64,000 bases of DNA from Nitrosomonas sp. (lineage in GTDB: Bacteria; Pseudomonadota; Gammaproteobacteria; Burkholderiales; Nitrosomonadaceae). The DNA is taken from positions 3,583 to 67,582 of the forward strand of contig JAAEXZ010000001.1 of assembly GCA_017879645.1 (NCBI GenBank). Direction: 5' to 3'. Under the pieces are notes generated by a model, which was not told the origin of the DNA, did no database searches, and was given only the letters and a program-made list of their open reading frames with translations. Made by a program: the position numbers and the translations under genes. Shown here piece after piece: positions 1,682 to 52,160 of this stretch (within the stretch, counting starts at the first letter, position 1; each line of letters opens with the position of its first letter).

Positions 1682-1730
1682 CCGGTATCTATTCACGACG
1701 ATTCAAAATGAAATGTTTTGAGCGTGTGGC

Positions 1731-3029: not shown

Positions 3030-3049
3030 GATTAAGCCATCATCGGATA

Positions 3050-3760
3050 TTGCAAATGACAAAAAATATCAGTGAAGAAGAACTGTTACTCAGGAAGCGT
3101 GCAAGAAGACGTCTCGTTGGTGCGATTGTTTTGGTCATCTTGTCGGTCATCATTCTACCGATGATTTTTGATGAGCCAAAAACAGACAAGATCGAGAAAC
3201 AGGAAATGGCGATCAATTTGCCCCCACAAAGCAGGAGTGCAATCGCAGACTCCCCTCCGCTGCCGACTGAACAACTGATTTCAAAGGAAGCGCTCGAGAA
3301 ACTGACTGCCTCGACCGAGTCGCAATCCGTTTCAAAGCATAAGCCGACCTCGGATGATGATGGTGTCGAATCGTTGCCGGAACGAAAACGCATGCCCATT
3401 CCAGGAATCAAACCGAGATTCGAGAAACCCGCTGTCGAAGCAAAAGTTACGACAAATACATCAGTTCCAACTCCAGCATCTGTGGCTGCCCCGGCTCCAG
3501 CCCCAGCTTCGGCAGTAGTTGCCGATACACCCAAAAATCTCGTTATTCAGTTGGGTGCATTCTCTGACTCGGTAAAAGCAAAACAACAGCTGGATGGTCT
3601 GATTGCCAATGGCTTCAATGCCTATACTGAATCATTGAAAACTGCGAATGGTGAAGTAACACGTGTACGTATTGGGCCTTACACAAATCGCAATACTGCG
3701 GAAAGTGAACTGAAAAAACTCAAGAAATTAGGTTTTGAAGGTGTGCTTACATCGCGCTAA
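3050..3760 (+). CDS. SPOR-domain cell-division protein (DedD-like)
   Basis: N-terminal TM anchor (LVGAIVLVILSVIILPMIF), a Pro/Ala-rich linker and a C-terminal SPOR fold (VIQLGAFSDSVKAKQQ...RVRIGPYTNRNTAESELKKLKKLGF). It occupies the dedD slot between folC and cvpA. Confidence 0.75.
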   Translation: MQMTKNISEEELLLRKRARRRLVGAIVLVILSVIILPMIFDEPKTDKIEKQEMAINLPPQSRSAIADSPPLPTEQLISKEALEKLTASTESQSVSKHKPTSDDDGVESLPERKRMPIPGIKPRFEKPAVEAKVTTNTSVPTPASVAAPAPAPASAVVADTPKNLVIQLGAFSDSVKAKQQLDGLIANGFNAYTESLKTANGEVTRVRIGPYTNRNTAESELKKLKKLGFEGVLTSR

Positions 3761-3839
3761 TGAGCAAGTGGAGAAATTGGTGCATCCTAGCAGCCAATTT
3801 TTTTCGACCTGATTATCACAAGGACTTTAATTTAAATCG

Positions 3840-4355
3840 ATGACAGTTTTTGATTATGTTGTTTGCGGTATTTTTCTTGTATCGATCATCTTGAGCATTA
3901 TCCGCGGACTGGTAAGAGAAACACTCTCGATTGCTGGCTGGATTGTAGCGTTTGTGGTTGCAAGTGCCTATGCTGTTCATATGGAACCCTACTTGCCGAC
4001 AGAGCTGGTAGGGGAAACATTAAGATTTTCCATATCTTTCGTTTTAACCTTCGTTTCCGTATTATTGTTGACTGCTCTGGTGACCATGTTGTTATCAACC
4101 CTGATCAAGGGTATAGGATTAGGTTTCATTGACAGATTGCTAGGCTGTATATTTGGCACGCTACGAGCATTGATCATTGTAACGACCATTGTGTTGATAG
4201 CTGGTTTGACGACGATTCCTAACCAGACTTTCTGGCAACAGGCTACACTCAGCAGACCATTGGAAGTCATTGCGTTACAGACCTTGCCCTGGTTGCCGGA
4301 TGATCTGGCCAAAAGGATCAGTTTCGAGCGTAAAGAAAACTCCTTGTATAAATAA
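3840..4355 (+). CDS. cvpA: CvpA family membrane protein (colicin V production protein)
   Basis: 171 aa with four hydrophobic helices, immediately upstream of purF as in the E. coli dedD-cvpA-purF arrangement. Confidence 0.8.
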   Translation: MTVFDYVVCGIFLVSIILSIIRGLVRETLSIAGWIVAFVVASAYAVHMEPYLPTELVGETLRFSISFVLTFVSVLLLTALVTMLLSTLIKGIGLGFIDRLLGCIFGTLRALIIVTTIVLIAGLTTIPNQTFWQQATLSRPLEVIALQTLPWLPDDLAKRISFERKENSLYK

Positions 4356-4448
4356 CTGTCTAGAATCTGGAAGAGTATTTGAGGATGAACGATCTTGTAA
4401 AGGCATGGGCAACAGGATCGAGGTCACTAAAATTAATGGAGTGTTGCT

Positions 4449-5969
4449 ATGTGTGGAATTCTTGGCATTGTTGCACAGTCGCCCGCTAATCAACTGCTCT
4501 ACGATGGTCTGCTCATGTTGCAGCATCGTGGACAAGATGCAAGTGGTATCGTGACGGCACAGGGCAATACCTTTCACATGCATAAAGGTTGTGGTTTGGT
4601 TCGCGATGTATTTCGTACCAGAGATATGCGGGAACTTTCAGGCAATATGGGGATTGGCCATGTCCGCTATCCTACAGCAGGTTCAGCCAGTTCGTCTGCC
4701 GAAGCGCAACCTTTTTATGTCAATTCACCATTTGGAATCGTATTGGGACACAATGGCAACCTGACCAATTCAGAACAGTTGAGCGAGGAGTTGTTCAAAG
4801 CTGATCTACGGCATGTCAACACCAATTCCGATTCGGAAGTATTGTTAAACGTGCTGGCCCATGAATTGCAGAAATGTGCACGTAACTATCGATTGGACCC
4901 GGAAACCATTTTTGCCGCCGTTTCCGGTGTGCACAGGCGTTGCAGAGGTGCGTATGCTGTAGTGGCCATGATAGCCGGTTACGGTTTATTGGCATTTCGC
5001 GATCCTTTCGGAATCAGGCCCTTGGTGTTTGGTTCATTGGAAAGCGAGCGGGGTGTGGAGTATTTGGTCGCTTCCGAGAGTGTGGCGCTGGATACCCTCG
5101 GTTTCAAAGTCATTCGTGATGTGGCGCCAGGAGAAGCCATTTTTATCGATGAGTCCGGAAATTTCTACAGCGAACAATGCGCCAGCCAATTTTCACTCCA
5201 TCCCTGTATTTTTGAATACGTTTACCTGGCTCGTCCGGATTCGGTGATTGATGGTATATCGGTGTATGAGACCCGACTCAATATGGGTGAGCATCTTGCA
5301 GAAAAAATCAAAAAAACGATGCGCCATATGGATATTGATGTCGTCATTCCTATTCCCGATTCGAGTCGACCCAGTGCATTGCAATTGGCCAACAAGCTGG
5401 GTGTTACCTTTCGCGAAGGGTTCGTGAAAAATCGTTATGTCGGCCGTACTTTTATCATGCCCGGACAGCAATTACGCCGAAAATCGGTTCGACAAAAACT
5501 GAATGCAATGAGTATCGAATTTCGTGGCAAGAATGTCATGCTCGTGGATGACTCTATCGTGCGTGGTACAACCAGCCGGGAGATTGTTCAGATGGCACGC
5601 GAGGCGGGGGCAAACAAAATCTATTTTGCATCGGCGGCACCGCCGGTTCGCTATCCGAATGTTTACGGTATCGACATGCCAACGCGGCACGAACTTATCG
5701 CAACGGATCGAAGCAACGAGGAAATTTGCCATGAAATTGGAGCGGATGAACTCGTATTTCAGGATCTGGACGCGCTGAGTCATGCAGTTGCAAAATTATC
5801 AACCTCACTCAAGCATTTTGAAACTTCCTGTTTTGATGGAAAATACATCACCGGTGATGTCACCCCGGATTATTTGCGTACACTGGAATTGCAACGTAGC
5901 TCCGGGGCAACCTCTGTTCGTTCAAGATCCAATATGCAACTGGATCTGAGTCTGGTTGTATCGGAGTGA
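4449..5969 (+). CDS. purF: Amidophosphoribosyltransferase
   Basis: MCGILGI N-terminal Cys nucleophile (Ntn glutamine amidotransferase) plus the PRPP-binding [14 protein letters not shown] motif. 506 aa. Confidence 0.95.
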
Positions 5970-6040
5970 ATCCCTGGCGACTACATTGTCGTTACCGCAG
6001 TTTGTATTGTGCATACCCAATTGAAAATTGATTTTATTTG

Positions 6041-7243
6041 ATGAACAAAGACGATATCAAGATTACTGAAATGACCGAACACTTGCAGCCAGAGACACTT
6101 GCATTACATACGGGTATTCATCGCAGTCAATTTAACGAACACTCGGAAGCGATGTTCCTGACCTCAAGTTTTGTATTCGATAATGCAGCCCAGGCGGCTG
6201 CACGTTTTTCCGGAAACGAACCTGGCAACATCTATTCACGCTTCACCAATCCGACGGTGACTGCTTTTGAAGAACGCCTTGCCATCCTGGAGGGTGCTGA
6301 ACTGGGTGTGGCTACTGCGTCGGGAATGTCTGCAATTCTGGCTTGCATAATGGGATTGTTAGCTGCGGGAGATCATGTCGTTGCCTCGCGCAGTTTATTT
6401 GGTGCCACAGTTAATTTGTTCAATAACATCTTGAAGAAATTTGCGATCGATACCACATTCGTATCCGCTACCGATGTCGCTTCCTGGGAAGCCGCCATCC
6501 AGCCCAATACCAAATTGTTCTTTCTGGAAACGCCATCTAATCCATTGACCGAAATTTCGGATATTGCGGCTTTGGCTGAAATTGCCAGAAAGTATGGGAT
6601 ATGGTTGGCAGTGGACAATTGTTTCTGTACTCCCATCCTACAAAAACCACTTGAGCTGGGGGCTGACATTGTCATTCACTCCGCCACCAAATACCTGGAT
6701 GGGCAGGGTAGGGTACTCGGGGGCGCAGTATTAGGTAAGCGTGATTTGCTGATGGATGGAGGCATCTATGGTTTTCTGAGGACTGCCGGTCCCACGATGA
6801 GTGCTTTCAACGCCTGGGTAATTTTGAAAGGACTTGAGACGCTGAAAATTCGGATGCAGAATCACGCGGCAAATGCGCTACAACTGGCCCAGTGGCTTGA
6901 ATCACAACCCAATGTGGCACGTGTTTATTATCCTGGCCTGCCTTCACATCCACAGTATGCACTGGCAAGAATTCAGCAAAATTCGGGGGGGGGGATTGTG
7001 ACATTTGAAGTGCGTGGCGGCAAAGATGCCGCATGGCGCGTTATCGATTCCACCCGCCTGATTTCCATTACGGCCAATCTAGGGGATGCCAAGAGTACAT
7101 TGACGCATCCCGCAACCACGACCCATGCGCGTATCAGTCAGGAAGCACGTGATGCTGCAGGTATTTCGGATGGACTGTTGCGCATTGCGGTGGGATTGGA
7201 AGCAGTACAGGATATCCAGGCTGATCTTGCCCGAGGACTGTAA
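6041..7243 (+). CDS. metZ: O-succinylhomoserine sulfhydrylase (Cys/Met-metabolism PLP enzyme)
   Basis: Cys/Met PLP family with the lysine motif HSATKYLDGQG. N-terminus (TLALHTG...EHSEAMFLTSSFVF) and length are typical of MetZ. ATG at 6041 is preferred over the TTG at 6038. Confidence 0.8.
   Translation: MNKDDIKITEMTEHLQPETLALHTGIHRSQFNEHSEAMFLTSSFVFDNAAQAAARFSGNEPGNIYSRFTNPTVTAFEERLAILEGAELGVATASGMSAILACIMGLLAAGDHVVASRSLFGATVNLFNNILKKFAIDTTFVSATDVASWEAAIQPNTKLFFLETPSNPLTEISDIAALAEIARKYGIWLAVDNCFCTPILQKPLELGADIVIHSATKYLDGQGRVLGGAVLGKRDLLMDGGIYGFLRTAGPTMSAFNAWVILKGLETLKIRMQNHAANALQLAQWLESQPNVARVYYPGLPSHPQYALARIQQNSGGGIVTFEVRGGKDAAWRVIDSTRLISITANLGDAKSTLTHPATTTHARISQEARDAAGISDGLLRIAVGLEAVQDIQADLARGL
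6985..6994 (+). repeat. G10 homopolymer inside metZ (encodes S-G-G-G)
   Basis: Direct count: aat tcg ggg ggg ggg att, with G at 6985..6994. It is in frame as given. Confidence 0.95.
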
Positions 7244-8583: not shown

Positions 8584-9969
8584 ATGCTCAAAATTTATAA
8601 CTCCATTGCGAGAACAAAGCAGGATTTTGTTCCACTAGAGCCTGGCAAAGTAGGTCTCTATGTTTGTGGAATGACAGTCTACGATTACTGTCACCTTGGG
8701 CATGCGCGCGTACTGGTGGTGTTTGATACGGTTGTTCGCTGGTTTAGAGCAAGTGGGTACGTCGTTAACTATGTGCGCAATATTACCGACATCGATGACA
8801 AGATCATCAAACGCGCGCTGGAGAACAGCGAGCCCATCACCGCTCTGACCGATCGTTTTATCCAGGCCATGAATGAGGATTCAGACGCTCTGGGTGTGAT
8901 ACAACCTTCCAATCAGCCTCGTGCAACGGGCTATGTTGAACAGATGGTCCGCATGATCCAGACACTGGTGGATAAGGATCTTGCCTACCCGGCGCAAAAT
9001 GGCGACGTGTATTATTCCGTTTATAGATTTCCGGATTATGGAAAACTTTCCGGAAAATCACTGGATGATTTGCGTGCCGGTGAACGTGTGGAGATTGATT
9101 CCAATAAAAATGATCCGTTGGATTTCGTGCTGTGGAAAGCGGCGAAGCCGAATGAACCCGCTTGGGATTCTCCGTGGGGAAAAGGCCGACCCGGCTGGCA
9201 TATCGAATGCTCGGCGATGAGCGAGCAGTTGCTGGGAATTCATTTCGATATTCATGGCGGTGGACAGGATCTGCAGTTTCCACATCACGAAAATGAAATT
9301 GCGCAAAGTGAGGGGGCGCATGATCATCCATTTGTCAATTACTGGATGCATAATGGTTTTGTACGGGTGGATAACGAGAAAATGTCCAAATCGTTAGGCA
9401 ATTTCTTTACTGTTAGAGAGATACTCAAACATTATCAGGCTGAAGTCGTGCGGTTTTTCATATTGCGTGCACATTATCGCAGTCCGCTCAATTATTCAGA
9501 TCAGCACCTCAAGGATGCGAAACAGGCACTGGATCGGCTCTATACCGCCTTGAAAGACACGCCGCCTAATGTAGATGAGGCAAAAGTGGACTGGAATCAT
9601 GCTCATGCACAAAGATTCAAGGTTGCGATGGATGACGATTTCAATACCCCGGAAGCTGTAGCTGTGCTGTTCGAACTGACAAGCGATATCAACAAGACCG
9701 GTTCGACAGAAAACGCCAATCTATTAAAGGTATTAGGTGGTTTTCTGGGATTGCTGCAACAGAATCCGCAGGACTACCTGCAGGGCAAAGTTGCAATTCA
9801 TGAATCCCAAGGGCTGAGTTCGAATGAAATCGAACAATTGATTCAGCAGCGGATCGTTGCCCGAACGGAAAAACGCTATGCCGATGCCGATACGCTACGC
9901 AAGCACCTGTTATCGCAAGGCATCATTCTTGAAGACGGTGCACAGGGAACAACCTGGCGGCGAGTTTAA
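8584..9969 (+). CDS. cysS: Cysteine--tRNA ligase
   Basis: Class I synthetase HIGH-type motif (CHLGHAR) and KMSKS present verbatim ([10 protein letters not shown]). 461 aa. Confidence 0.95.
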
Positions 9970-33239: not shown

Positions 33240-34454
33240 ATGACCACATCGTCGCAAGATCCGGCTGACGTGAGTGTGCCGAAATTAAAAGCGCTGCCGC
33301 CACTGAGTCTGTATATCCATATTCCCTGGTGCCTGAAGAAATGCCCTTACTGTGACTTCAATTCGCATGCGATAAAGACAGCGGATGCACAGGTACCCGA
33401 AGCGGAATATGCCGCTGCACTCATTCGCGATCTGGAATCAGCCCTGGCGGAAGTATGGGGGCGGCGTCTCGGCAGCGTGTTTTTTGGGGGCGGTACACCG
33501 AGTGTATTCAGCGCGCAGTCAATTGACAGAATATTGACTGCGGTGCGCATGCTGTTACCGCTGGAGCCCTATGCCGAAGTTACGCTGGAAGCCAATCCCG
33601 GTACGTTTGAGGCACAAAAGTTCAAGGACTTCCGTGCGGCCGGAATCAACCGCCTGTCCATCGGCATACAGAGTTTCAATCCACACCATTTAAAGGCACT
33701 GGGACGTGTGCACGATGATCGTGAAGCATGGCGTGCAGTTGAAATGGCACAAAACCATTTCGATAATATCAACCTCGATGTGATGTATGCCTTGCCCGGG
33801 CAAACCGTCCAGCAAGCACAGGTTGATATCGAAACGGCCTGTTCATTCGGGGTTTCGCATCTCTCGGCCTATCATCTGACCCTCGAACCCAATACGCTGT
33901 TTTATCGTTTTCCCCCGCAACTTCCCGATGATGAAACCGCAGCCACGATGCAGGAAATGATCGAGCAAACCCTGATGAATCGGGGGTATCGTCATTACGA
34001 GACTTCCGCTTATGCGCAGCCCGGAAAGGAATCTCAGCACAACACCAATTACTGGTTGTTTGGTGATTATCTGGGCATCGGAGCGGGCGCACACAGCAAA
34101 ATCAGTTTTTCGGATAAAATCGTGCGCCAGATGCGTTTCAAGCAACCCCGGCAGTATCTGGAGCAGGCGGCCTCCGCTACATCGCTGATTCAGACACAGC
34201 ATAGCCTGACATCGGCCGACCGGGGATTCGAGTTCATGATGAATGCGTTGCGATTGCACGGTGGATTTGATACACCGCTTTTTCAGGAACGGACGGGGCT
34301 GCCGGTGGATGAATTGCGACAACAACTCGATGAAGCCGAGCGACAGGGATTGCTGGTATGGGACCGGCATCGTATCAAGCCAACCGTACTGGGCAGGCGT
34401 TTTTTGAATGATTTGCTGCAATTATTCTTGCCCGCCGAACCAAGTGTGAAATAA
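33240..34454 (+). CDS. hemW: Radical SAM heme chaperone HemW (HemN-like, oxygen-independent coproporphyrinogen oxidase family)
   Basis: LSLYIHIPWCLKKCPYCDFNSH cluster motif, GGGTPS, and a HemN C-terminal domain. 404 aa. Confidence 0.85.
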   Translation: MTTSSQDPADVSVPKLKALPPLSLYIHIPWCLKKCPYCDFNSHAIKTADAQVPEAEYAAALIRDLESALAEVWGRRLGSVFFGGGTPSVFSAQSIDRILTAVRMLLPLEPYAEVTLEANPGTFEAQKFKDFRAAGINRLSIGIQSFNPHHLKALGRVHDDREAWRAVEMAQNHFDNINLDVMYALPGQTVQQAQVDIETACSFGVSHLSAYHLTLEPNTLFYRFPPQLPDDETAATMQEMIEQTLMNRGYRHYETSAYAQPGKESQHNTNYWLFGDYLGIGAGAHSKISFSDKIVRQMRFKQPRQYLEQAASATSLIQTQHSLTSADRGFEFMMNALRLHGGFDTPLFQERTGLPVDELRQQLDEAERQGLLVWDRHRIKPTVLGRRFLNDLLQLFLPAEPSVK

Positions 34455-38338: not shown

Positions 38339-39181
38339 TCAACCCAATTGCTCGCTGTGATACTTCAAATGTTCGCCAATAAAGGTACTGATGAAATAAT
38401 AGCCGTGATCGTAACCACTGTGGAAGCGCAGTGTGAGTTTCTGGCTTGCTTCGCGGCAGGTTTTCTCCAAAGCTTCAGGATACAGTTGCGAAACCAGGAA
38501 CTGGTCGTCCATGCCTTGATCGATCAGTAAATCCGGTGCACGCATACCATCCTCAATCAACGCAGTGGCATCATGCTGACGCCAGCTTTGTTGATCTTCT
38601 CCCAGATAGTTGCGGAACGCTTTTTGTCCCCACGGACAGCGCATCGGTGCGCAAATCGGTGCCAGTGCCGATACGGATCGATATTTATCCGGGTGGTACA
38701 GAGCCAGTGTCAGAGCGCCATGTCCGCCCATCGAATGACCAAAAATACCTATCTGACCCGGATCGGCTGGAAACTGATCGAGAATGATCTGGCGCAGCTC
38801 ATGCGTCACGTAACTTTCCATTCGATAATATTGCGACCAGGGGGCTTGCGTCGCGTCCAGGTAGAATCCTGCACCGGCACCAAAATCCCAGGTATCGGTT
38901 TCACCTGCAATGCCGGTCTGACGCGGACTGGTATCCATGGTGATCAGCATCAGACCATATTCGGCGGCATAACGTTGTGCACCGGCCTTGATCATGAACG
39001 TTTCTTCGGTACAAGTCAGTCCGGCCAGGAAAAATAGTGCCGGCACGGCATGATTTTTGGCTTGAGGGGGTTGATACACGGAAAAGCGCATCGGCAGCCC
39101 GATGATTTCCGAAAGATGCTGGTAATATCCCTGGATGCCGCCAAAGCAGAGATGCTGGCTGCGGGTTTCAATTGTCGCCAC
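38339..39181 (-). CDS. fghA: S-formylglutathione hydrolase (esterase D)
   Basis: N-terminus with CFGG..., nucleophile elbow GHSMGGHGAL, and the C-terminal GYDHGYYFI motif. Directly downstream of adhC. Confidence 0.92.
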   Translation of the reverse strand: MATIETRSQHLCFGGIQGYYQHLSEIIGLPMRFSVYQPPQAKNHAVPALFFLAGLTCTEETFMIKAGAQRYAAEYGLMLITMDTSPRQTGIAGETDTWDFGAGAGFYLDATQAPWSQYYRMESYVTHELRQIILDQFPADPGQIGIFGHSMGGHGALTLALYHPDKYRSVSALAPICAPMRCPWGQKAFRNYLGEDQQSWRQHDATALIEDGMRAPDLLIDQGMDDQFLVSQLYPEALEKTCREASQKLTLRFHSGYDHGYYFISTFIGEHLKYHSEQLG

Positions 39182-39183
39182 GA

Positions 39184-40290
39184 TCAGTAAATCACCACGG
39201 AGCGGATCGATTCACCGGATTTCATCAAACGGAAACCCTCGTTGATGTTATCCAGTGTCAGTGTGTGAGTGATCAGGGAATCGATATCGATTTTGCCTTC
39301 CATATACCAGTCGACGATTTTCGGTACGTCGGTGCGGCCGCGCGCGCCGCCGAATGCAGAACCTTCCCATTTACGGCCGGTGACGAGCTGGAATGGCCGC
39401 GTGCTGATTTCCGCACCGGCTTCGGCGACGCCGATGATGATGCTGCGTCCCCAGCCTTTGTGTGTGCATTCCAGTGCCTGGCGCATCACTTTGGTACTGC
39501 CGATGCACTCGAAGCTGTAATCCGCGCCGCCGTCGGTCAGTTGCACCACAGCGTCGATAATGTTCGGCACGTCGTTCGGGTTGATGAAATGGGTCATGCC
39601 GAATTTGCGTGCCATCGCTATACGCTCGGGATTGATGTCGATACCGATGATTTTATCTGCACCGACCATGCGCGCGCCTTGAATCACGTTCAAGCCGATG
39701 CCGCCCAGACCGAACACCGCCACGTTGGCACCGGCTTCCACTTTGGCGGTATAAATCACCGCGCCGATGCCGGTAGTGACGCCACAGCCGATGTAACATA
39801 CTTTATCGAACGGCGCATCCTGGCGAATCTTGGCCAAGGCGATTTCGGGCACTACGGTGTAATTGGAGAACGTGGATGTGCCCATATAATGAAACAGGGG
39901 TTTACCGTCGATGGAAAAGCGTGAAGAACTGTCGGGCATCAGACCCTTACCCTGTGTGGCACGGATGGCCTGGCACAAGTTGGTTTTTTTTGACAAGCAG
40001 AATTTGCACTCGCGGCATTCCGGTGTGTACAGCGGAATGACATGGTCGCCTTTGCGCAGCGATTTGACGTTCGGGCCGACATCGACCACTACGCCCGCGC
40101 CTTCATGGCCAAGAATGGCGGGAAACAAGCCTTCCGGATCAGCGCCGGATAACGTGTAATAATCGGTATGGCAGATGCCGGTAGCCTTGATTTCAACCAA
40201 TACTTCACCGGACCGGGGGCCTTCGAGATCGATTTCTTCGATGGTTAACGGTTCGCCCGCTTTCCAGGCTACGGCAGCTTTTGTTTTCAT
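39184..40290 (-). CDS. adhC: S-(hydroxymethyl)glutathione dehydrogenase / class III alcohol dehydrogenase
   Basis: [25 protein letters not shown]..., Zn ligands in GICHTD and [15 protein letters not shown], Rossmann VFGLGGIGL. 368 aa. Confidence 0.95.
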
Positions 40291-40796
40291 AGGTGGTTCC
40301 TGTTCGTAATGATCGTTTCGTGTAAATGCTCGAGCAAACCCTGGCTGGCTTCTTCCACCATATTCAGTACCAGCTCGAAACCTTCGTGACCGCCAAAGTA
40401 AGGATCCGGTACCTCGGTATCGTCGTCATGATTCTTGCTATAAGCCATAAATAACCGGATTTTGTCGTGATGGTGGTGAGGGCTGCGTTGCTGCAGCAAA
40501 CGCAGGTTTTCCCTATCCATGGCCAGAATGTAATCGAATTCATCAAAATCGCTGATTTCGACGGCTCGTGCACGCAGGTCGTCCATTTTGTAGCCACGCC
40601 TGAATGCGGTACGTTGCGAGCGTTCATCGGGAGGATTGCCGATATGATAAGCATGGGTTCCGGCCGAATCGACCTCGATGAGATGATCCACGCCCGCTGC
40701 CTTGACGTAATGACGAAATACCGCATCGGCTGTGGGTGATCGGCAAATATTGCCCATGCAGACAAAGAGTACTTTTGTTTTTCTAGGATTGATCAT
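40287..40796 (-). CDS. Low-molecular-weight protein-tyrosine phosphatase family protein
   Basis: P-loop [15 protein letters not shown] and the DP loop (VPDPYFG). Its stop overlaps the adhC start by 4 nt (ATGA). Confidence 0.85.
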
Positions 40797-40987: not shown

Positions 40988-42142
40988 TCATTCGACACAA
41001 GAATGATAAACCCTGGGGCATACGGTACTTAGGCCGCCAGTCGGATCGTCTGCTGGAAGGCTTCTCAGTGTTTGCAGCACATTGGGAAAATATCCGGGTG
41101 CCCGAGTCCAGAAAATGTAGTTGGCTTTCAGATTATCTCGGGCATATGCCAACAGTTCCTCGACTGTAGGTGTCTTGCCGGATTTATCAGGACGGGTATT
41201 GACATAATTTGTTTGCATGACCGAGGGTGTCAGAGGGACTATTCCGGAAAGTTCTGAATAATGATGATAGACCCCCTTGGGAGCATTTGTCCTATTGACA
41301 GTCAATCCAGGATCGTCGGGGAATGTATCTGGGCCACCTAAGCCCGTTCCGATTTCCCGCAAACGGTTGACAAATGATTTCAGCATCGGCCTGGGATAAT
41401 TCGTAAACTGATAGGTCATGGTGTTCGGGAAATGTGTTCTTAATTCCTGGTTAATGAGTAACATGCCGGAATAAAAACTGTTTTCCTGATTCTTGGATAA
41501 TTCAATCATAGGCTTGCCCATGGCGGTTTCAGTCAATCCTATCCCCTCAAAATAGGGGTGCGTATTGAATCGCTTACCCAATTCGGTGATTAGGGCAACG
41601 AGCCGATTTTGTAGTTGTACATTCCAAAGTTTCAGGTTATAGCCCCTGATCTTTTGTGTCCCGTAACTGCTGAATGGAAAAGCGCCTTCCTCGTATTTTT
41701 TGTCTTTCAAATAATCGGGTATGAATCGGGTCGATGCGTCGAAGGACTTGATTTGCAATAATACGATCAATCTTTTCTTGCGCTCGGACAACTCTCTCAA
41801 TCGCTGCTCGATCTGTGAAAAATCATATGCTCCTTCACTGGGTTCCAGGTCTATCCATTCATAGCGGATTTGCACGCCACGTAACGCGGGCGTATTTTCC
41901 AGTTCCCGATAAACTTGAGACAGATATTGCGGATTGTTTTTTCCACCCATCAATGTGTAGTAATGGCCGGGATGCCATTTTACCGCTCCGGCTTCGCTGT
42001 TACGGGATGCGTGCGCTGAAAGGCTCGGTGTGGTGAGGAAAATAACCAGGAATGTAAAAGTCAGAATGGGTTTGAATTGAGCAAACCGCATGAAGTCCCG
42101 GCTATTGAAGCGTGTTTGTAACATACTAAAAATCTTCATCAT
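40988..42142 (-). CDS. Secreted uncharacterised protein, paralogue 2 of 3
   Basis: AAGGAGG RBS and signal peptide ending LSAHA/S. Same conserved blocks as 12889..14043 (VKWHPGHY, RGVQIRYEWIDLEP, LIVLLQIKSF, FEGIGLTETAMG, NYIFWTR, terminal CPRVYHSCVE). Confidence 0.85.
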   Translation of the reverse strand: MMKIFSMLQTRFNSRDFMRFAQFKPILTFTFLVIFLTTPSLSAHASRNSEAGAVKWHPGHYYTLMGGKNNPQYLSQVYRELENTPALRGVQIRYEWIDLEPSEGAYDFSQIEQRLRELSERKKRLIVLLQIKSFDASTRFIPDYLKDKKYEEGAFPFSSYGTQKIRGYNLKLWNVQLQNRLVALITELGKRFNTHPYFEGIGLTETAMGKPMIELSKNQENSFYSGMLLINQELRTHFPNTMTYQFTNYPRPMLKSFVNRLREIGTGLGGPDTFPDDPGLTVNRTNAPKGVYHHYSELSGIVPLTPSVMQTNYVNTRPDKSGKTPTVEELLAYARDNLKANYIFWTRAPGYFPNVLQTLRSLPADDPTGGLSTVCPRVYHSCVE

Positions 42143-42536
42143 TAGGTGTTCCTCCTTGAAGCCAATTGAAGTGCTCTGGATTCAATCAGTGCAGTGGTGT
42201 TGAAATGAACAGTGTCAGGGAATCAATATCAAATCGATGGGATGGGAAGGTGCTGCAAGTAACAAATGGGTCGCAAATTAACTGATCGACAGCATTGCTG
42301 TTCAGGCATCGTGCAATATTCAGACACGATTGTAAAGGAATATCGCATGCTGCAGATTATATTCATTCTGGAATACAATAGCCTAATCAATGAAATACCT
42401 GCTCTTTCTGGCAAGAATCCAGCAGAGCAAGTGTCGGGTTTCAGGCTGACGAGTAATTGAAAACAAGCTGGGTTGAAACGATTTGCATCGTTTTATTTTC
42501 TAATAGAATATCTGAATTCTAACTTAAGGGTGTGAC

Positions 42537-43343
42537 ATGACCCAGTTTCGTAAACCGGCTGTAGCAGGCCTGTTTTATTCCGCGGAAAACAAACAGCTTG
42601 TAAAAGACGTGCAAGTCTTGCTGGCCAGGGCAAAACACCAGACCTGCTTGCCCAAGGCATTGATCGTGCCGCATGCCGGCTATGTTTATTCGGGTAGTGT
42701 AGCGGCAGCCGCTTATGCCACCCTGAATTCGATTGCAGGCCGCATCAGACGTGTGGTGCTACTGGGTCCGGCACATCGTTTTGCATTCAGCGGTGTGGCG
42801 TTGCCTGACGCGGATGCTTTTACCACACCACTGGGAGAAATCAAGTTGGATGTGGGATGGATCCGGAAAAATCAACATCTGTCCGGACTACTTGTTTCCA
42901 GGGCAGCGCATGAATTCGAGCATGCCCTGGAAGTACAGTTGCCATTCTTGCAATGTGTATTGAACGATTTTGTTTTGTTACCTTTGGTCGTTGGTATGAC
43001 GACTGTCGAAACCGTTGCCGAGATTCTTGAAAATGCTTGGGGTGGAGAAGAGACATTGATCGTGGTCAGTTCCGATCTCTCGCATTACCTGCCTTACGAA
43101 GTGGCACAACAGGTGGATCAGCAGACTATTCGGGGCATTTTGCAACTCCAGCTTCTGGCAGACCGTGATCAGGCTTGCGGTAGTATGCCGATCAATGGAT
43201 TGATCATGGCAGCCCGGAAGCATCATCTGACACCACAATTGCTGGATTCGTGCAATTCAGGTGATACGGCTGGCGAACGAACACAAGTGGTCGGGTATGC
43301 TTCGATTGCTTTCACTGATATCAAGGTTAAACATGCTTCCTGA
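42537..43343 (+). CDS. AmmeMemoRadiSam system protein B (Memo-like)
   Basis: N-terminus RKPAVAGLFYS, metal-ligand context VPHAGYVYSG, and SSDLSHY. 268 aa. Confidence 0.85.
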   Translation: MTQFRKPAVAGLFYSAENKQLVKDVQVLLARAKHQTCLPKALIVPHAGYVYSGSVAAAAYATLNSIAGRIRRVVLLGPAHRFAFSGVALPDADAFTTPLGEIKLDVGWIRKNQHLSGLLVSRAAHEFEHALEVQLPFLQCVLNDFVLLPLVVGMTTVETVAEILENAWGGEETLIVVSSDLSHYLPYEVAQQVDQQTIRGILQLQLLADRDQACGSMPINGLIMAARKHHLTPQLLDSCNSGDTAGERTQVVGYASIAFTDIKVKHAS

Positions 43344-43902
43344 GTCCATGACGCAAGGCAATATCGTATTGAGAATTGCCCGTGCGGCGATCGCGCAGGC
43401 ACTCCATGTGCACTTTGAATCCATTGATTCTGAAGCGAATCAACCTTGGTTGTTGCAGCCTGGAGCCTCGTTTGTCACTTTGTTGCAGCATGGTCAACTG
43501 CGAGGCTGTATCGGTTCATTGCAACCTGATTTACCCTTGCTGGAAGATATTCGCAAAAATGCGGTATCGGCCGCACTGCACGATTCCCGTTTTTTACCGT
43601 TGACTCAGCGTGAATTCAGTTCCATCGCAATCGAGGTATCCGTACTTTCTGATCTTGATCGCATCGATTTCAGAGATGAAGCGGATGCGATTGCACAAAT
43701 GCGTCCGGGAATGGACGGTATCGTTTTGGAGTATGAAAACTGTCGTAGCACATTCTTGCCGCAAGTATGGGATAGCATTCCCGATCCCCAGCAATTTCTG
43801 GAAAATCTGAAAATCAAGGCCCAGTTACCCGGAGATTTCTGGGCAGCAGGAATCCGGTTATTTCGTTATACGGTCAACTCGTGGCACGAAACTAAATCTT
43901 AG
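43333..43902 (+). CDS. AmmeMemoRadiSam system protein A (AMMECR1 domain)
   Basis: AMMECR1 core LRGCIGS plus DSRF and EVSVLS blocks. Start set at ATG 43333, overlapping the stop of protein B by 11 nt. Confidence 0.82.
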   Translation: MLPESMTQGNIVLRIARAAIAQALHVHFESIDSEANQPWLLQPGASFVTLLQHGQLRGCIGSLQPDLPLLEDIRKNAVSAALHDSRFLPLTQREFSSIAIEVSVLSDLDRIDFRDEADAIAQMRPGMDGIVLEYENCRSTFLPQVWDSIPDPQQFLENLKIKAQLPGDFWAAGIRLFRYTVNSWHETKS

Positions 43903-43911
43903 GAGGTTGAT

Positions 43912-45003
43912 ATGGATGAGCCGATTACACCTGACCAGCAGTTTCCTGCGCGTTACTGGCATGTTCTGCAAGATGGCAGGATTCAATGTGATCTCTGCCC
44001 CCGGGACTGCAAGTTGCATGACGGGCAGCGAGGAGCCTGTTTTGTGCGTGCGCGTGCCGGTGATTCGATGGTGCTGACCACCTATGGGCGGTCTTCGGGG
44101 TTTTGTATCGATCCTATCGAAAAGAAACCGTTGTATCACTTCTATCCAGGTAGCAGCGTTCTGTCCTTTGGCACGGCAGGCTGCAATCTTGCCTGCAAGT
44201 TTTGTCAAAACTGGGATATATCGAAATCGCGGAGCTTCGATAAACTGATGGATCGGGCAAGTCCCGAGGCAATTGCGCAGTGTGCTGTGCAACATGACTG
44301 TCGAAGTGTTGCCTTTACTTACAACGATCCGGTCATTTTTGCAGAATATGCGATCGATGTTGCCGATGCCTGTCATGCCAGAGGAATTAAGACGGTTGCA
44401 GTAACGGCTGGATACATCAATGCGCAGGCACGAAAGGATTTCTTTGCCGGAATGGATGCAGCCAATGTCGATCTCAAGGGTTTTACGGAAGCGTTTTATC
44501 TGAAACAAACCGGATCACACCTTCAGCCAGTACTCGAGACACTGCAATATTTGAAACACGAAACCGAGGTCTGGCTGGAACTGACCACACTGTTGATACC
44601 AGGCTTGAATGATTCGATCGAAGAATTGGAAAAGATGTGCAGGTGGATACATGATGCGCTGGGAACCGGCGTGCCATTACATTTCACCGCATTTCATCCG
44701 GATTACAAGCTCGATGATATCCCGTCGACACCACTTGAAACCTTGATTCAAGCACGCAAGATTGCACTCGATTGTGGATTGCAGTACGTCTACACCGGAA
44801 ATGTTCATCATCGCGAGGGGGATACAACGCTCTGCCATACCTGTGGCAACATCGCTATTGAGCGTGACTGGTACGAAATCAAACGTTACGAGTTGACGAC
44901 AGAAGGCTGCTGCAAGCATTGCAACGCTTCAATACCAGGCTGCTTCGGGGCATTCTCAGGGCAATTTGGGAGACAGAGAATGCCTGTCAGAATCGGTATT
45001 TAG
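43912..45003 (+). CDS. AmmeMemoRadiSam system radical SAM enzyme
   Basis: CNLACKFCQNW 4Fe-4S/SAM motif. AGGAGG RBS overlaps the stop of protein A. The C-terminal CHTCG...CCKHC four-Cys ribbon is present. 363 aa. Confidence 0.88.
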   Translation: MDEPITPDQQFPARYWHVLQDGRIQCDLCPRDCKLHDGQRGACFVRARAGDSMVLTTYGRSSGFCIDPIEKKPLYHFYPGSSVLSFGTAGCNLACKFCQNWDISKSRSFDKLMDRASPEAIAQCAVQHDCRSVAFTYNDPVIFAEYAIDVADACHARGIKTVAVTAGYINAQARKDFFAGMDAANVDLKGFTEAFYLKQTGSHLQPVLETLQYLKHETEVWLELTTLLIPGLNDSIEELEKMCRWIHDALGTGVPLHFTAFHPDYKLDDIPSTPLETLIQARKIALDCGLQYVYTGNVHHREGDTTLCHTCGNIAIERDWYEIKRYELTTEGCCKHCNASIPGCFGAFSGQFGRQRMPVRIGI

Positions 45004-45050
45004 CTCGCTAGCGTCAGCTGCAATACCCATTTGTGGGCGGGGCGGCGGAT

Positions 45051-45347
45051 CTAGTTGACCGGTTCGAGTAAGCTTTTGACCGTTCCGCTACGTACTCTTT
45101 TTTTACCATTACCGTTTAACGCATTATTGACCTCAATTTCGGCATCAAGCCAATCCTGCATGGCATCGGCGGCGTTGCCGTTAAAACCGCGTTTCTCGGC
45201 GAGATAATAAGCCGCCACTGCAATCATATGCTGGCGATCATACGTCTCGGTGCTATGATTGTCCGACTGACTCCGGATAGCGGCAGTACGTTTGGACGAT
45301 TTGGATTCCTTTATTTTATCGGCGAGTTCGTTTACTTTATTTTCCAT
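45051..45347 (-). CDS. DUF2934-like small protein
   Basis: The IAVAAYYLAEKRGFNGNAADAMQDWLDAEIEV core matches the DUF2934 signature as I recall it. 98 aa. Confidence 0.6.
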   Translation of the reverse strand: MENKVNELADKIKESKSSKRTAAIRSQSDNHSTETYDRQHMIAVAAYYLAEKRGFNGNAADAMQDWLDAEIEVNNALNGNGKKRVRSGTVKSLLEPVN

Positions 45348-45521
45348 TTCAGTACTCCTTTGGCGATACCATGAAAGTTAATGTAACGGGATTGAGAAAT
45401 CAAATACTTGGAATCAAATTGTATCCATTGTAGTGATCCATGTTAGCTGAACCTGTTTCGAATAATGAGTAGGAAAATACTCATTTTTAATTCAGTAAAT
45501 TCCGGTACTTCGAGCTTTTTC

Positions 45522-45848
45522 TCAACAGTGCATTTCCGATGATTCCGAATTGCTTCCCAATGTATGGTGCAACCTGAAAAATTCAGTGTGGATGATCATC
45601 GGGGTACGTTTCGTTAAGGCAGATAAAACCTTTGAGTCTGTCGTGTTGAATACCAGGCTGATTTCAAGCAACCGACGCAGTGAAGGCGAGAGGGAATAGT
45701 GGCTGTCAATGGTGCTGATCAAATGTGCGGCATGCAGTTTAGCGCGCCTCAGTTGACCCGTTTCGTGAAAACCAGACTGACCGCTTACTGGTTTGGATTT
45801 AGAGTAGCTAGAGCTTAACCGATCATCGGAAAAATTCGATTGCATCAT
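45522..45848 (-). CDS. Hypothetical protein (108 aa), no recognisable family
   Basis: Start trimmed to the ATG preceded by CAAGGAGT at 8-nt spacing (plus-strand gactccttg at 45855..45863). No motifs recognised. Confidence 0.4.
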   Translation of the reverse strand: MMQSNFSDDRLSSSYSKSKPVSGQSGFHETGQLRRAKLHAAHLISTIDSHYSLSPSLRRLLEISLVFNTTDSKVLSALTKRTPMIIHTEFFRLHHTLGSNSESSEMHC

Positions 45849-46124
45849 TTGAATGACTCCTTGCAAAAAGCGATAGAGGCAAAATAACAATCTTTTGTGA
45901 CAAGAATATAACAAAAAAAATTTAAATCAAGTCAGAAAACTTTGTAATTTCAGGGTGCAATTTTCAGACAAGACTAAATTTCTTTGTAGGACTAGCATTG
46001 GTGCTGTTCAGCGTTGTCATGATCGCATCTTAGTGGTTTTAAAAAAATGAATTGCGTGATCATGCAGGTAGATTGAAGTACATCTGGCAAATCTTTTTAA
46101 TTGTGTTGTGGAATTAACATATTG

Positions 46125-46355
46125 TTATTGGTATAAATTCTTATGAAAAATTTTTCCATCACACATGATGCCAGCGACAGGCAACGCCAATCCGTACAAA
46201 CTGATTTGACCTGTCATGGCAGCATCATGACGTACTAGGTGATCGGTGAACAGTGACATCAATACGATAACCATTGCCACACTGGGGTCCGTCCTGGAGA
46301 ATAGAGTCAATCTATTATTCAGCACTCTGGAATATTTGCTCCAGCCTGCCAGATA
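46125..46355 (-). pseudogene. Relic of a Lon (S16) protease proteolytic domain
   Basis: The translation ...RTDPSVAMVIVLMSLFTDHLVRHDAAMTGQISLYGLALPVAGI... aligns by eye with Lon PKDGPSAGIAM...[26 protein letters not shown]. Only about 76 codons lie between stops, there is no ATPase part, and the Lys-dyad region is degenerate. Confidence 0.5.
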
Positions 46356-46400
46356 TCATGAGCCGCCACGCATCAAATTTTTCACTTTCCAGAATGGATG

Positions 46401-46850
46401 CTAGGGGCGGTGCCTTTCTTCTTTTCTCTGTTCGTATCTGACCAGTTTGGCCAGATCAAGCAATTCCTGAGACAGTATTCCCAGCGCATCATCTAGCGTC
46501 AGTATGCCAATCAGCTCCCCGGAATTGTCAACGACTGGTAAGCGCCGTACCGTTTTGCGTCGCATGAATTCTATCGCTTCATGCGTCGGCATGTTTTCGT
46601 TAACCGTAAATATTTCCGATGCCATGATGTCACCTACCGTGATAACGGTTTCGTCTAGCTCCGTTGCTAGAATCTCAACGACCAGATCGCGATCCGTGAC
46701 AATGCCAACAGGAACTTGGTGATTGTGCTGCTTTTCCACCACGATGACAGCACCGACGTGATACTGCCGCATCAGTTTGGCAGCACCTAAAACCGTTTCT
46801 TCACGCTGAATGACGATTACTTGACGATTGCATAGGCTTCCGACTGTCAT
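46401..46850 (-). CDS. CBS-pair domain protein
   Basis: Two CBS repeats (HVGAVIVVEKQ...PVGIVTDRDLV and RRLPVVDNSGELIGILTLDDAL). Start set at MTVGSLC (46850). Confidence 0.75.
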   Translation of the reverse strand: MTVGSLCNRQVIVIQREETVLGAAKLMRQYHVGAVIVVEKQHNHQVPVGIVTDRDLVVEILATELDETVITVGDIMASEIFTVNENMPTHEAIEFMRRKTVRRLPVVDNSGELIGILTLDDALGILSQELLDLAKLVRYEQRKEERHRP

Positions 46851-49349: not shown

Positions 49350-52160
49350 ATGAAGCTTGAAACGAAATTTATGCGTAGCCGGGTTGCCCGGCGCATGCTA
49401 CTTTTCTTTGTTATCTCTGCATTCATTCCAGTATTGTTCTTGGCTGTCCTGTCTTATTGGGAATCTAACCAGCAATTGACCAGACAAGCGCAAACCCGTC
49501 TGGATGCGGTCAGCAAGATTTATCAAACTTCGATTTATGACCGGTTGCTGCTACTGGATCGGGCGTTGATCGAAGTTTCGCAACAACTGACTGAAAACGA
49601 ATTGCCCAATGACATGCAGGTGCAACTACAGGATAAATTTCGTCATCTCGCACTGCAATTTTCTGATGGCAAATTCCTGACCCTGCTAGGGCAAGATATG
49701 CCCGTCACGTCACTGAGTTCCGCGGCATTGCAGCATTTGCAGCACGGCCAACCCTTGCTCGTCACGCAGCGAATGGATTCCGATATCCGAATATTTGTTT
49801 TGCGTGCTCAATCGTTATCCACAGATCAGTCTGTCATCATCCGTGCAGAAATCATTCCGGAATTTTTATGGGGAAATCCTGAAGATTTTGTACTGGATAA
49901 TAATTTATGTATATTCAATGAGCTAAACATTAATCTGTTTTGTACCAACGTGCCAATTTATCCGGTGCTAGAGGATCTACAGGAAAAGACCCGCGCAACC
50001 AAAGGCAATCTGTATTGGCAGCATCAAGGCGAAAACTTTATCGCCAGTTATCATGAAATTTTCTTGCAGGCAAAGTTTATGACGCCGCGCTGGGTCGTGC
50101 TGGCATCGCAACCGGAAATGGAAGCGCTGCATGCGCTGAAGCAATTTAATACCATTTTCTGGGGCAGCGTAATTTTGTCCATTTTACTCATTCTGTTGTT
50201 GAGCATGACGCAGATTCGTCGTGTCCTCGTGCCGCTCGAACAATTGATCGATGGTACTCGCCGTTTGAGTGGCCGCGATTTCACTGCCAAAGTGTCTGTC
50301 TCCAGCACTGATGAATTCGGTGAACTGGCTTCTTCATTCAATGCGATGAGCGACAGGTTGGGTTATCAGTTTGAAACACTGGAGGCGCTTGCAAAGATTG
50401 ACCGTGATATTTTGTCATCGCTCGATATGGACAGTATCGCGACAGATGTTTTGAGTCACCTCAAGAAATTGACGGGCGCGGAGTTTGGCAGTATTTCTGT
50501 CATGAATGCCAAATCTTCCTTGTCAATGCATACTGTTGTCAGTAATGGTTCGGCGGACAAACCGACTGTTACGACGGATGTCTTGCTGGAGAACACACAT
50601 GCTCTGCTGATACAGCATCAACGGGGTATCTGGGTAGATCATCAGCTTATCAAACAACAGATTAAAGAATATACAACAGCAGTCAGATATTTCTTTTTGT
50701 TTCCATTGAACTGGAAAGAGCAGATGGTGGGGTTTATCGCCTTGGGATGCCAGAACAGACAACATTGGGTAGAGGATGAGAACCAGTTGATTCAGGATTA
50801 TGCCGATCGGATTGCGGTGGCACTTTTTACTCGAAACCGGGAAGAAATGCTTATTCGTCAGGCGAGAATCGATGCGTTGACAGGTTTGCCCAACCGGTTT
50901 TTGTTCGTTGAACAACTGCAAAAGGAGATTGCCAAAGCGCATCGTACAACGGCAAGGTTTGCGGTGTTTTATATCGATCTGGATCGCTTCAAGAAAATCA
51001 ATGATAGTCTCGGTCATTCGATCGGGGACAAGTTACTATGCGATGCGGGTCGGCGTTTGCAACACTGCGTACGCGAGAGCGATATGGTTGCCCGGCTGGG
51101 TGGCGATGAGTTTGCCGTTCTGGTCAATCCAGTTGAGCATGAACACATCGCTACCCGGATAGCTGACGATATCGTTCAGTCATTGACCAAACCTTTTTTT
51201 CTCGATGGTGATGACAATGTGGTTGGGGCTAGTATCGGCATAGCCCTGTTTCCCAGTGACGGTGAAAGCGTCGAAGAACTGATGCGCAATTCGGATATTG
51301 CCATGTACCGTGCCAAAGCAAACAGTGGCAATCGCTATATCTTTTTTGAAGAAAGCATGAATTCGGAAGTAATCAGGCGTGCCAATACTGAAAGAGAATT
51401 AAGGAAAGCCATTGCCGAAAAACAATTCGTCTTGCACTATCAGCCGCAGATCGATCCCAAAACAAATCTACCTCGGGGTGTCGAAACCCTGGTGCGCTGG
51501 AATCATCCCCGGTTGGGATTGATTTCTCCGGCTTCATTTATCCCGATTGCAGAAGAAGCCGGACTGATCGTCGATATCGGATATTTTATTCTGCACGAAG
51601 CTTGTGCGCAGTATCGTGCGTGGTGTGATCAGGGAATCGTATTGGATTATGTCGCTGTTAATGTTTCAGTCGAGCAATTCAGTCATGCTCATTTTGTGCA
51701 ATCGGTTGAGGCAGCGCTTAGAAACAATGACATGCCGGCGCATTGCCTGGAGCTGGAAATAACGGAAAGTGTACTGATGAACGATACAACGGTTGTACTC
51801 GAGGTTTTGCATCGATTGCGGCAAATGGGTATACAACTTTCGATTGATGATTTTGGAACCGGGTATTCATCCTTATCCTATCTCGAGCAACTGCCTTTTG
51901 ACACGCTGAAGATCGACATATCGTTTGTCAATAAAATTCAGGATGATCGCAGTGGTGGTACGATTGCGGCCACGATAGCTGCCATGGCGCATACATTGGG
52001 TAAGAAAGTCGTTGCAGAAGGTGTCGAAACCCAGGCACAACTGGACTTTTTGCGAAATCATGACTGTGAATTGATACAGGGTTTTTATTTCAGCCGGCCA
52101 TTGCCAGCCTGCGAGCTCGCCGCTTTCGTGAGTTCGAAGCGTGTTTGTCACAAGGACTGA
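49350..52160 (+). CDS. Periplasmic-sensor / HAMP / GAF-like / GGDEF / EAL signalling protein
   Basis: TM1, an extracytoplasmic domain of about 230 aa, TM2, HAMP (DEFGELASSFNAMSDRL), intact RLGGDEFAVL, and an EAL domain with ETLVRW, DDFGTGYSSLSYL and KIDISF. 936 aa. It starts 12 nt after the pseudopilin stop. Confidence 0.88.
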   Translation: MKLETKFMRSRVARRMLLFFVISAFIPVLFLAVLSYWESNQQLTRQAQTRLDAVSKIYQTSIYDRLLLLDRALIEVSQQLTENELPNDMQVQLQDKFRHLALQFSDGKFLTLLGQDMPVTSLSSAALQHLQHGQPLLVTQRMDSDIRIFVLRAQSLSTDQSVIIRAEIIPEFLWGNPEDFVLDNNLCIFNELNINLFCTNVPIYPVLEDLQEKTRATKGNLYWQHQGENFIASYHEIFLQAKFMTPRWVVLASQPEMEALHALKQFNTIFWGSVILSILLILLLSMTQIRRVLVPLEQLIDGTRRLSGRDFTAKVSVSSTDEFGELASSFNAMSDRLGYQFETLEALAKIDRDILSSLDMDSIATDVLSHLKKLTGAEFGSISVMNAKSSLSMHTVVSNGSADKPTVTTDVLLENTHALLIQHQRGIWVDHQLIKQQIKEYTTAVRYFFLFPLNWKEQMVGFIALGCQNRQHWVEDENQLIQDYADRIAVALFTRNREEMLIRQARIDALTGLPNRFLFVEQLQKEIAKAHRTTARFAVFYIDLDRFKKINDSLGHSIGDKLLCDAGRRLQHCVRESDMVARLGGDEFAVLVNPVEHEHIATRIADDIVQSLTKPFFLDGDDNVVGASIGIALFPSDGESVEELMRNSDIAMYRAKANSGNRYIFFEESMNSEVIRRANTERELRKAIAEKQFVLHYQPQIDPKTNLPRGVETLVRWNHPRLGLISPASFIPIAEEAGLIVDIGYFILHEACAQYRAWCDQGIVLDYVAVNVSVEQFSHAHFVQSVEAALRNNDMPAHCLELEITESVLMNDTTVVLEVLHRLRQMGIQLSIDDFGTGYSSLSYLEQLPFDTLKIDISFVNKIQDDRSGGTIAATIAAMAHTLGKKVVAEGVETQAQLDFLRNHDCELIQGFYFSRPLPACELAAFVSSKRVCHKD

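Follow-up and report, generated by a model that had tools for sequence, protein, structure and literature searches.

A 64-kb stretch of Nitrosomonas sp. DNA, referred to here as the window, was found to carry a plus-strand cassette of three genes at 42537-45003 that encode a Memo-like protein (B), an AMMECR1-like protein (A), and a radical S-adenosylmethionine (SAM) protein (R). The three translated products were compared to the curated NCBIfam models of the AmmeMemoRadiSam system and to Pfam, and each scored above the curated cutoff of its model. B matched TIGR04336 with 260.9 bits (cutoff, 26; E = 1.1e-77) over profile positions 1 to 270 of 270, A gave a full-length match to TIGR04335 with 187.6 bits (cutoff, 99; E = 1.2e-55), and R matched TIGR04337 with 627 bits (cutoff, 220; E = 7e-189) over profile positions 1 to 349 of 349. 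The corresponding Pfam matches were Memo for B (PF01875; 178 bits, 2.6e-52), AMMECR1 for A (PF01871; 153.6 bits, 4.4e-45), and Radical_SAM for R (PF04055; 59.2 bits against a cutoff of 29.5, 7.5e-16). These results establish beyond reasonable doubt that the trio is an ordinary member of the AmmeMemoRadiSam system, the amrB-amrA-amrS operon on the chromosome of a Nitrosomonas from wastewater. A first-pass annotation of this DNA had called a complete AmmeMemoRadiSam cassette and was right in doing so, as it was about the motifs VPHAGYVYSG and SSDLSHY of B (residues 44 to 53 and 178 to 184), LRGCIGS of A (residues 56 to 62), and CNLACKFCQNW, CHTCG, and CCKHC of R (residues 91 to 101, 308 to 312, and 333 to 337), all of which were found where it had placed them. 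Metagenomes from activated sludge, wastewater, and bioreactors contain DNA that is almost identical to the window. The exact R protein was present only in assembled public reads, and its nearest relatives were Nitrosomonas proteins with 73 to 82% identity; the nearest Nitrosomonas orthologues are already called "AmmeMemoRadiSam system radical SAM enzyme" in NCBI records. The system is already named, covered by curated hidden Markov models, and annotated automatically, and this copy is a textbook example of it. The coordinates of the genes and of the features discussed below are collected in Table 1.

Table 1. Genes, protein motifs, and candidate signals of the amrB-amrA-amrS cassette (window coordinates)
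Feature	Position	Strand	Details and basis
amrB (protein B)	42537-43343	+	268 aa; TIGR04336 and PF01875
amrA (protein A)	43333-43902	+	189 aa if the start is ATG 43333; TIGR04335 and PF01871
amrS (protein R)	43912-45003	+	363 aa; TIGR04337 and PF04055
N-terminal four-Cys motif of R (C26, C29, C33, C43)	43987-44040	+	CxxCxxxC-x9-C (CDLCPRDC...C); alignment
Radical SAM motif CX3CX2C of R (C91, C95, C98)	44182-44205	+	Invariant in the 41-homologue alignment
C-terminal CxxC...CxxC ribbon of R (C308, C311, C334, C337)	44833-44922	+	Flanks a beta-hairpin
Possible sigma-70-type promoter TTTGCA-16-TAGAAT	42482-42509	+	Consensus scan, 9/12 matches; weak evidence
Shine-Dalgarno-like AAGGG	42526-42530	+	6 nt before the B start codon; sequence inspection
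AGGAGG, ribosome-binding site of R	43901-43906	+	Overlaps the A stop codon; sequence inspection

The junctions between the three genes were then compared to those of relatives. The TGA stop codon of amrB occupies 43341-43343 and the ATG of amrA 43333-43335, which gives the 11-nucleotide (nt) overlap reported in the first-pass annotation if A starts at this ATG. The sequence AAGG lies 6 nt 5' of it. The only alternative start for A is an in-frame ATG at 43348, which would leave a 4-nt gap after B, and the two genes are tightly packed whichever start is used. A and R are separated by a 9-nt spacer, with the AGGAGG lying 5 nt before the ATG of R at 43912 and overlapping the TAG stop codon of A (43900-43902), again as annotated earlier. 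The median projected gaps in 38 relative loci were approximately -14 nt for B/A and -8 nt for A/R, and overlapping or near-touching junctions are typical of the relatives. The GC content of the cassette (49.7%) is near that of the window (47.5%), so nothing points to recent transfer. Sites of the kind found by the promoter and terminator scan were no commoner in this region than in shuffles, and for this reason the promoter-like site upstream of B is weak evidence. An AT-rich hairpin followed by a run of T residues (AAACGAT-TTGC-ATCGTTT; 42476-42499, plus strand) lies just 5' of B and overlaps the -35 element of the promoter-like site. When 41500-46500 was scanned with Rfam for riboswitches and leaders, there were no matches at E <= 1. 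In a wastewater metatranscriptome (X32), contigs fell within B, over the B/A junction (43313-43463), and within R, and the flanks had none. The A/R junction is covered in two further runs labelled as RNA, which may contain DNA, and one run (X25), in which the flanks were covered as evenly as the genes, probably does. The transcript data are consistent with co-transcription of the operon at a low level, and no more than that.

We investigated how consistently the three genes occur together. A genome scan produced at least 596 relatives of R, and locus counts were made on the best 80, nearly all of which are from Betaproteobacteria. The B-A-R order was kept, with B and A directly 5' of R, in 74 of these 80, and most of the exceptions were truncated contigs. 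R was the most conserved of the three, with identities to the relatives of 67 to 80% compared to 47 to 71% for B and 43 to 60% for A. The R protein of Burkholderia sp. Ac-20353 (L067; 69% identity) had neither B nor A within 8 kb, and at this locus a small protein of approximately 115 aa (MRFEAFSFGSIRIDG...; L067:9078-9424) follows R. The sole recurrent extra gene encodes a dienelactone-hydrolase-like alpha/beta hydrolase of approximately 210 to 250 aa, which directly follows R in 18 relatives (L001 [9095-9724], L002-L004, L006, L007, L009, L016, L017, L021, L022, L029, L030, L037, L056, L068, L070, and L080). This protein may be an optional fourth component; a search of the rest of the window found no such gene.

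Different results were obtained for more distant relatives. An exhaustive search with R of 1.84 billion cluster representatives (a 50%-identity library) gave 8,464 matches at E <= 1e-3 and 1,864 at E <= 1e-30, and 80 further metagenome loci, more distantly related than the betaproteobacterial ones, were assembled, 36 of which have at least 2 kb on both sides of R. A or B was found beside R in 8 of these 36 well-flanked loci, usually as a B-A fusion of approximately 470 aa, and B-A fusions in distant lineages lie directly 5' of R; the other 28 had neither. R-class genes with no A or B nearby were also seen at L067, L081, and L086. The "strict coupling" of the first-pass annotation thus describes the Betaproteobacteria sampled well but does not extend to the family as a whole.

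The distant relatives also include several types of fusion. Single-chain R-A-B proteins of 918 to 1152 aa, with the order radical SAM, AMMECR1, Memo, were found in Phycisphaeraceae and Verrucomicrobiales metagenome-assembled genomes (Planctomycetes and Verrucomicrobia; P0124-P0143, P0154, and P0161). They pass all three TIGR models and keep all of the key residues. An AlphaFold2 (AF2) model of one of them, P0124, has a disordered linker of approximately 95 residues between R and A. In addition, TIGR04337-class domains were found fused to N-terminal membrane redox modules of the DsbD_2, FMN_bind, and NosR-like Fer4_5 types (P0180, P0201, P0208, and P0223). The membrane-fused forms that were placed on contigs, L081 and L086, had no A or B nearby, and the neighbor in L081 is a 753-aa spermine-synthase-like gene. 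Such proteins may represent either a separate system or a built-in electron supply.

The membrane fusions, which occur in several lineages, bear on the possibility that the trio modifies an isoprenoid, a membrane lipid, or a quinone. Burroughs et al. 2019 (JBC) are reported to have linked the Memo clade to nucleotide-base and isoprenoid modification, and the second of these contexts is the one that would apply. Also in keeping with this possibility, 6 to 7 of the 80 betaproteobacterial loci have ispD and ispF upstream of the trio in divergent orientation, and a geranylgeranyl-reductase-family gene lies approximately 1.8 kb upstream of R in the archaeal locus L082. The ispDF link is, however, limited to a few related lineages, is absent from the window, and could be inherited synteny, while the membrane fusions that were checked lack A and B nearby and may belong to a different system. 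No Pfam membrane domain was found in B, A, or R of the window. Taken together, these observations make an isoprenoid, lipid, or quinone substrate improbable.

The sequence and fold of R were compared to those of other radical SAM enzymes. In an alignment of 41 diverse homologues with 39 to 71% identity, the four Cys residues near the N terminus of R, which the first-pass annotation had not mentioned, were invariant, and they could bind either an auxiliary Fe-S cluster or zinc. Of the C-terminal ribbon residues, C308, C311, and C334 were invariant and C337 was at least 90% conserved. The strands between the two ribbon knuckles span residues 314 to 319 and 322 to 326 in the AF2 model of R, and the relatives gave weak zinc-ribbon Pfam matches only. 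One R homologue (P0122; 823 aa, 66% identity) is split by an intein that has a LAGLIDADG domain and sits near the radical SAM cluster motif. The model of R had a predicted local distance difference test (pLDDT) score of 94.4 and a predicted template modeling (pTM) score of 0.93. The closest solved fold was that of the pyruvate formate-lyase activating enzyme (PFL-AE; 3cb8_A), with a Foldseek E value of 1.3e-14, a target template modeling (TM) score of 0.81, and a root mean square deviation of 2.5 A over 258 columns. This placed PFL-AE seven orders of magnitude ahead of LIAS, TYW1, QueE, viperin, NifB, and HydE, with TYW1 (6djt) among the weaker neighbors at E = 1e-7. The best sequence match of R in the PDB was also PFL-AE (3c8f; E = 1.6e-5), and the PDB sequence search found no close homologue and no structure of an R-class protein.

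The likeness to PFL-AE raises the possibility that R is an activase or maturase, placing a radical or a post-translational modification either on B or on A, where Cys59 or Gly61 of the RGCIG loop might be the site, with the modified partner being the working enzyme. PFL-AE is by far the closest relative of R in both sequence and structure and acts on a protein loop, and the invariant R-x-C-x-G loop of A would be a plausible target. The translational coupling, the conserved operon, and the fusions all place R beside A and B, and the flexible linker of P0124 tethers R to the A-B module in a way that would permit action in cis. Conversely, R is far under the cutoffs of the activase families, scoring 59.7 against 231.75 for TIGR02493 and 50.5 against 174.35 for TIGR02494, and all other activase models were also far below theirs. 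No glycyl-radical enzyme is apparent in the 64-kb window, since none of the ten large open reading frames (ORFs) scanned contained a Gly_radical or PFL-like domain. The five window ORFs of at least 700 aa encode UvrD, PolA, an RNase E/G, an FtsX-type permease, and a signaling protein at 49350-52160, the last of which was called GGDEF-EAL from its translation alone and was outside the domain scan. In addition, a catalytic activase is not usually found in a 1:1:1 fusion, R-class genes often have no A or B nearby, and eukaryotic AMMECR1 and MEMO1 are generally known to function without an R homologue. We consider action of R on its own partners, the chief competitor of our preferred reading, to be rather unlikely. 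The proposal of the first-pass annotation that one of the proteins modifies or matures another, or that the trio assembles a cofactor, is not favored in view of the R-class genes without A or B nearby and of the eukaryotic A and B proteins without R. A bolder form of the same idea appears very improbable. In it, R would generate a protein-based radical at, or covalently modify, the invariant Cys in the R-x-C-x-G loop of A, creating a new class of radical enzyme that is distinct from the glycyl-radical enzymes and also works in obligate aerobes such as Nitrosomonas, and in its eukaryotic descendants, AMMECR1 and MEMO1, the radical SAM step would have been replaced.

B retains a complete candidate metal site, consisting of H46, H80, D180, H183, and C214 together with a block of H125, E128, H129, and E132. 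The first four of these align with the PHAGY, GPSHH, and SSDFCHW segments of human MEMO1, that is, with MEMO1 H49, H81, D189, and H192. These four are also invariant in 15 triple fusions, and C214 corresponds to the Cys that is invariant among the fusions; we infer that it is equivalent to MEMO1 C244. Structures of MEMO1 are available in the PDB (7kq8, 7l5c, and 7m8h). Human MEMO1 is debated as an Fe/Cu-binding chaperone or a redox protein. If B had such a role, it might act with A and R to build or repair a metallocofactor, a possibility with which the intact His/His/Asp/His/Cys site of B, the eight extra conserved Cys residues of R, and the presence of the cofactor maturases NifB and HydE among the structural neighbors of R after PFL-AE would all agree. 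The NifB and HydE matches are weak, however (E of approximately 1e-7 and TM score of approximately 0.45), and generic to radical SAM barrels, and no metalloenzyme client was linked to the genes in any of the 160 loci examined. Metal or cofactor handling is accordingly rated as highly improbable.

A carries, in addition to the R57-x-C59-x-G61 loop, the motif HDSRF at residues 83 to 87, which contains D84-x-R86-F. Both the R-x-C-x-G and the D-x-R motif are unchanged throughout the triple fusions, and RGCxG and DxR(aromatic) were described as the likely active site of AMMECR1 by Balaji and Aravind (PMC2034487). The relatives of A in the PDB are ST0229, MM0484, and PH0010, every one of which is labelled hypothetical.

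Our preferred reading, which we hold tentatively and rate a little short of an even balance, is that the three proteins form one radical-SAM-dependent modification machine that acts on a separate substrate. The 1:1:1 single-chain fusions fit a pathway or holoenzyme better than they fit a catalytic activase, and the R-class genes without A or B nearby make it unlikely that R exists solely to mature A or B. To our knowledge, eukaryotes keep A and B, as AMMECR1 and MEMO1, without any R homologue, which argues for such a machine over an activase. PFL-AE, the closest fold to R, has the most open barrel of the radical SAM enzymes, and this was also counted for the machine. The matches to all three curated models, the conserved B-A-R order with its close junctions, the X32 contigs, and the RNA-base modification role predicted by the Aravind laboratory were likewise taken as support. 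The gene identities, conserved residues, R fold, linkage, and natural fusions are observed, and the formation of a complex, the sequence of reactions, and the substrate are inferred. In the scheme that we propose, R would hold a [4Fe-4S] cluster on C91, C95, and C98 and would reductively cleave SAM to give a 5'-deoxyadenosyl radical that abstracts a hydrogen atom from the substrate. The wide PFL-AE-like barrel and the two extra four-Cys modules of R hint at a bulky substrate or a docking partner. A, with two RAGNYA domains forming a cleft, would hold the substrate, and its invariant Cys59 might serve as a nucleophile or a radical relay. B, with its putative His/His/Cys metal site and its Asp and His residues, would then perform an O2-independent follow-up step. 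The AmmeMemoRadiSam family also occurs in strict anaerobes, and the Nitrosomonas host is an obligate aerobe, a distribution that speaks against any obligatory role of B as a dioxygenase. The most likely class of substrate is a nucleotide or an RNA base, with a peptide or an isoprenoid as the alternative.

Several observations weigh against this modification machine. The likeness of R to PFL-AE would fit just as well if the substrate were a protein, A and B among the candidates. The AF2 model of the triple fusion P0124 had a pTM score of 0.42 with no confident domain packing and was uninformative. The RNA evidence for the operon consists of low coverage by assembled contigs of environmental runs, for which DNA carry-over is possible, and the genes neighboring the cassette in the window give no hint of a substrate. 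On one archaeal contig (L082 [1031-6906] and L083), genes for a geranylgeranyl-reductase-family protein, a Taw2/Trm5-like tRNA enzyme, an R-class protein, and RaSEA (the archaeosine radical SAM enzyme) stand in a row, and the tRNA role that this context suggested was rejected when the arrangement was found in 0 of 80 further metagenome loci. No biochemical or genetic data for any family member were found in the searchable literature.

The published record on the system was also surveyed. Balaji and Aravind drew attention to the trio in 2007 and proposed RNA base modification by analogy with TYW1/TYW3, a prediction that rests on the RAGNYA fold, the conserved Cys, and the gene neighborhood (PMC2034487), and Kaur et al. 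2020 mention "recently-described Memo-Ammecr1 systems." In the searchable full-text literature, whose coverage excludes subscription journals, annotation mentions and the predictions of the Aravind laboratory were found and no experimental assignment of a substrate; no PDB entry assigns one either. Within these bounds, the earlier remark that no substrate had been established still holds.

The immediate neighbors of the cassette are unrelated to it and encode an unknown secreted protein, a DUF2934 protein, a CBS protein, and an L,D-transpeptidase. Beyond these, the window consists of core chromosome, with genes for PolA, UvrD, CysS, RNase E/G, and a PurF-like protein and with adhC-fghA. The last two genes, on the minus strand at 38339-40796, form a glutathione-dependent formaldehyde detoxification pair (adhC, TIGR02818, 624 bits; fghA, TIGR02821, 442 bits) and adjoin a low-molecular-weight protein-tyrosine phosphatase gene. 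Divergent from the operon, at 40988-42142 on the minus strand, is a gene for a 384-aa protein with a signal-peptide-like N terminus, no Pfam match, and a faint GH35-like hit, which is kept at the same position with 63% identity in one Nitrosomonas relative (L002). The window contains a further radical SAM gene, of the HemN/HemW-like type (Radical_SAM plus HemN_C), at 33240-34454 on the plus strand, an indication that this aerobe uses radical SAM enzymes routinely.

In humans, AMMECR1 and MEMO1 are linked to disease, and no molecular function is agreed for either; the pairing of their prokaryotic counterparts with a radical SAM enzyme offers the best lead so far, and discovery of the substrate would probably explain all three proteins. 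The window copy brings that substrate no closer, being one of thousands of equivalent loci, in a host that is difficult to manipulate genetically, and with uninformative neighbors. The analysis did yield by-products of use to the field, namely, the invariant N-terminal Cys residues of R and the frequency of stand-alone R-class genes, and the single-chain R-A-B fusions would be convenient expression constructs.

Compared to known systems, R has the same CX3CX2C motif as PFL-AE and the other glycyl-radical-enzyme activases and a PFL-AE-like partial barrel, but it differs from them in having approximately 60 extra N-terminal residues that contain an invariant four-Cys motif, a C-terminal four-Cys ribbon, and the segment DPIEKKPLxHFxPG ahead of the cluster motif. 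The TYW1/TYW3 steps of wybutosine synthesis, which are the basis of the 2007 analogy, likewise set a radical SAM enzyme alongside a RAGNYA-fold enzyme with a conserved cleft Cys, and the resemblance of the window trio to them is one of analogy only, without sequence membership. A belongs to the same fold family as human AMMECR1, PH0010, ST0229, and MM0484 and has the RGCxG and DxRF motifs, and because all of the solved AMMECR1 structures are labelled hypothetical, no ligand or activity can be transferred from them to A. B aligns with human MEMO1 over residues 5 to 184 (E of approximately 1e-18), and the PHAGY, GPxH, and SSDxxH motifs are common to both; B is the shorter protein, with 268 aa compared to 293 to 294 residues in the MEMO1 PDB chains, and MEMO1 works in cells without an R homologue, its enzymatic role being itself disputed. 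The Memo clade belongs to the LigB-type (class III extradiol dioxygenase) superfamily, and B matches Memo alone in Pfam, with no LigB match at E <= 1e-3. Finally, compared to the AmmeMemoRadiSam system itself, for which the annotation pipeline PGAP uses the symbols amrA, amrB, and amrS, the window copy has no fourth gene for a dienelactone-hydrolase-like protein, unlike the 18 relatives, which include the nearest Nitrosomonas loci and in which this gene comes after R. Its three genes are adjacent, co-directional, and overlapping, its family-invariant residues are all kept, and it differs from the system in nothing essential.

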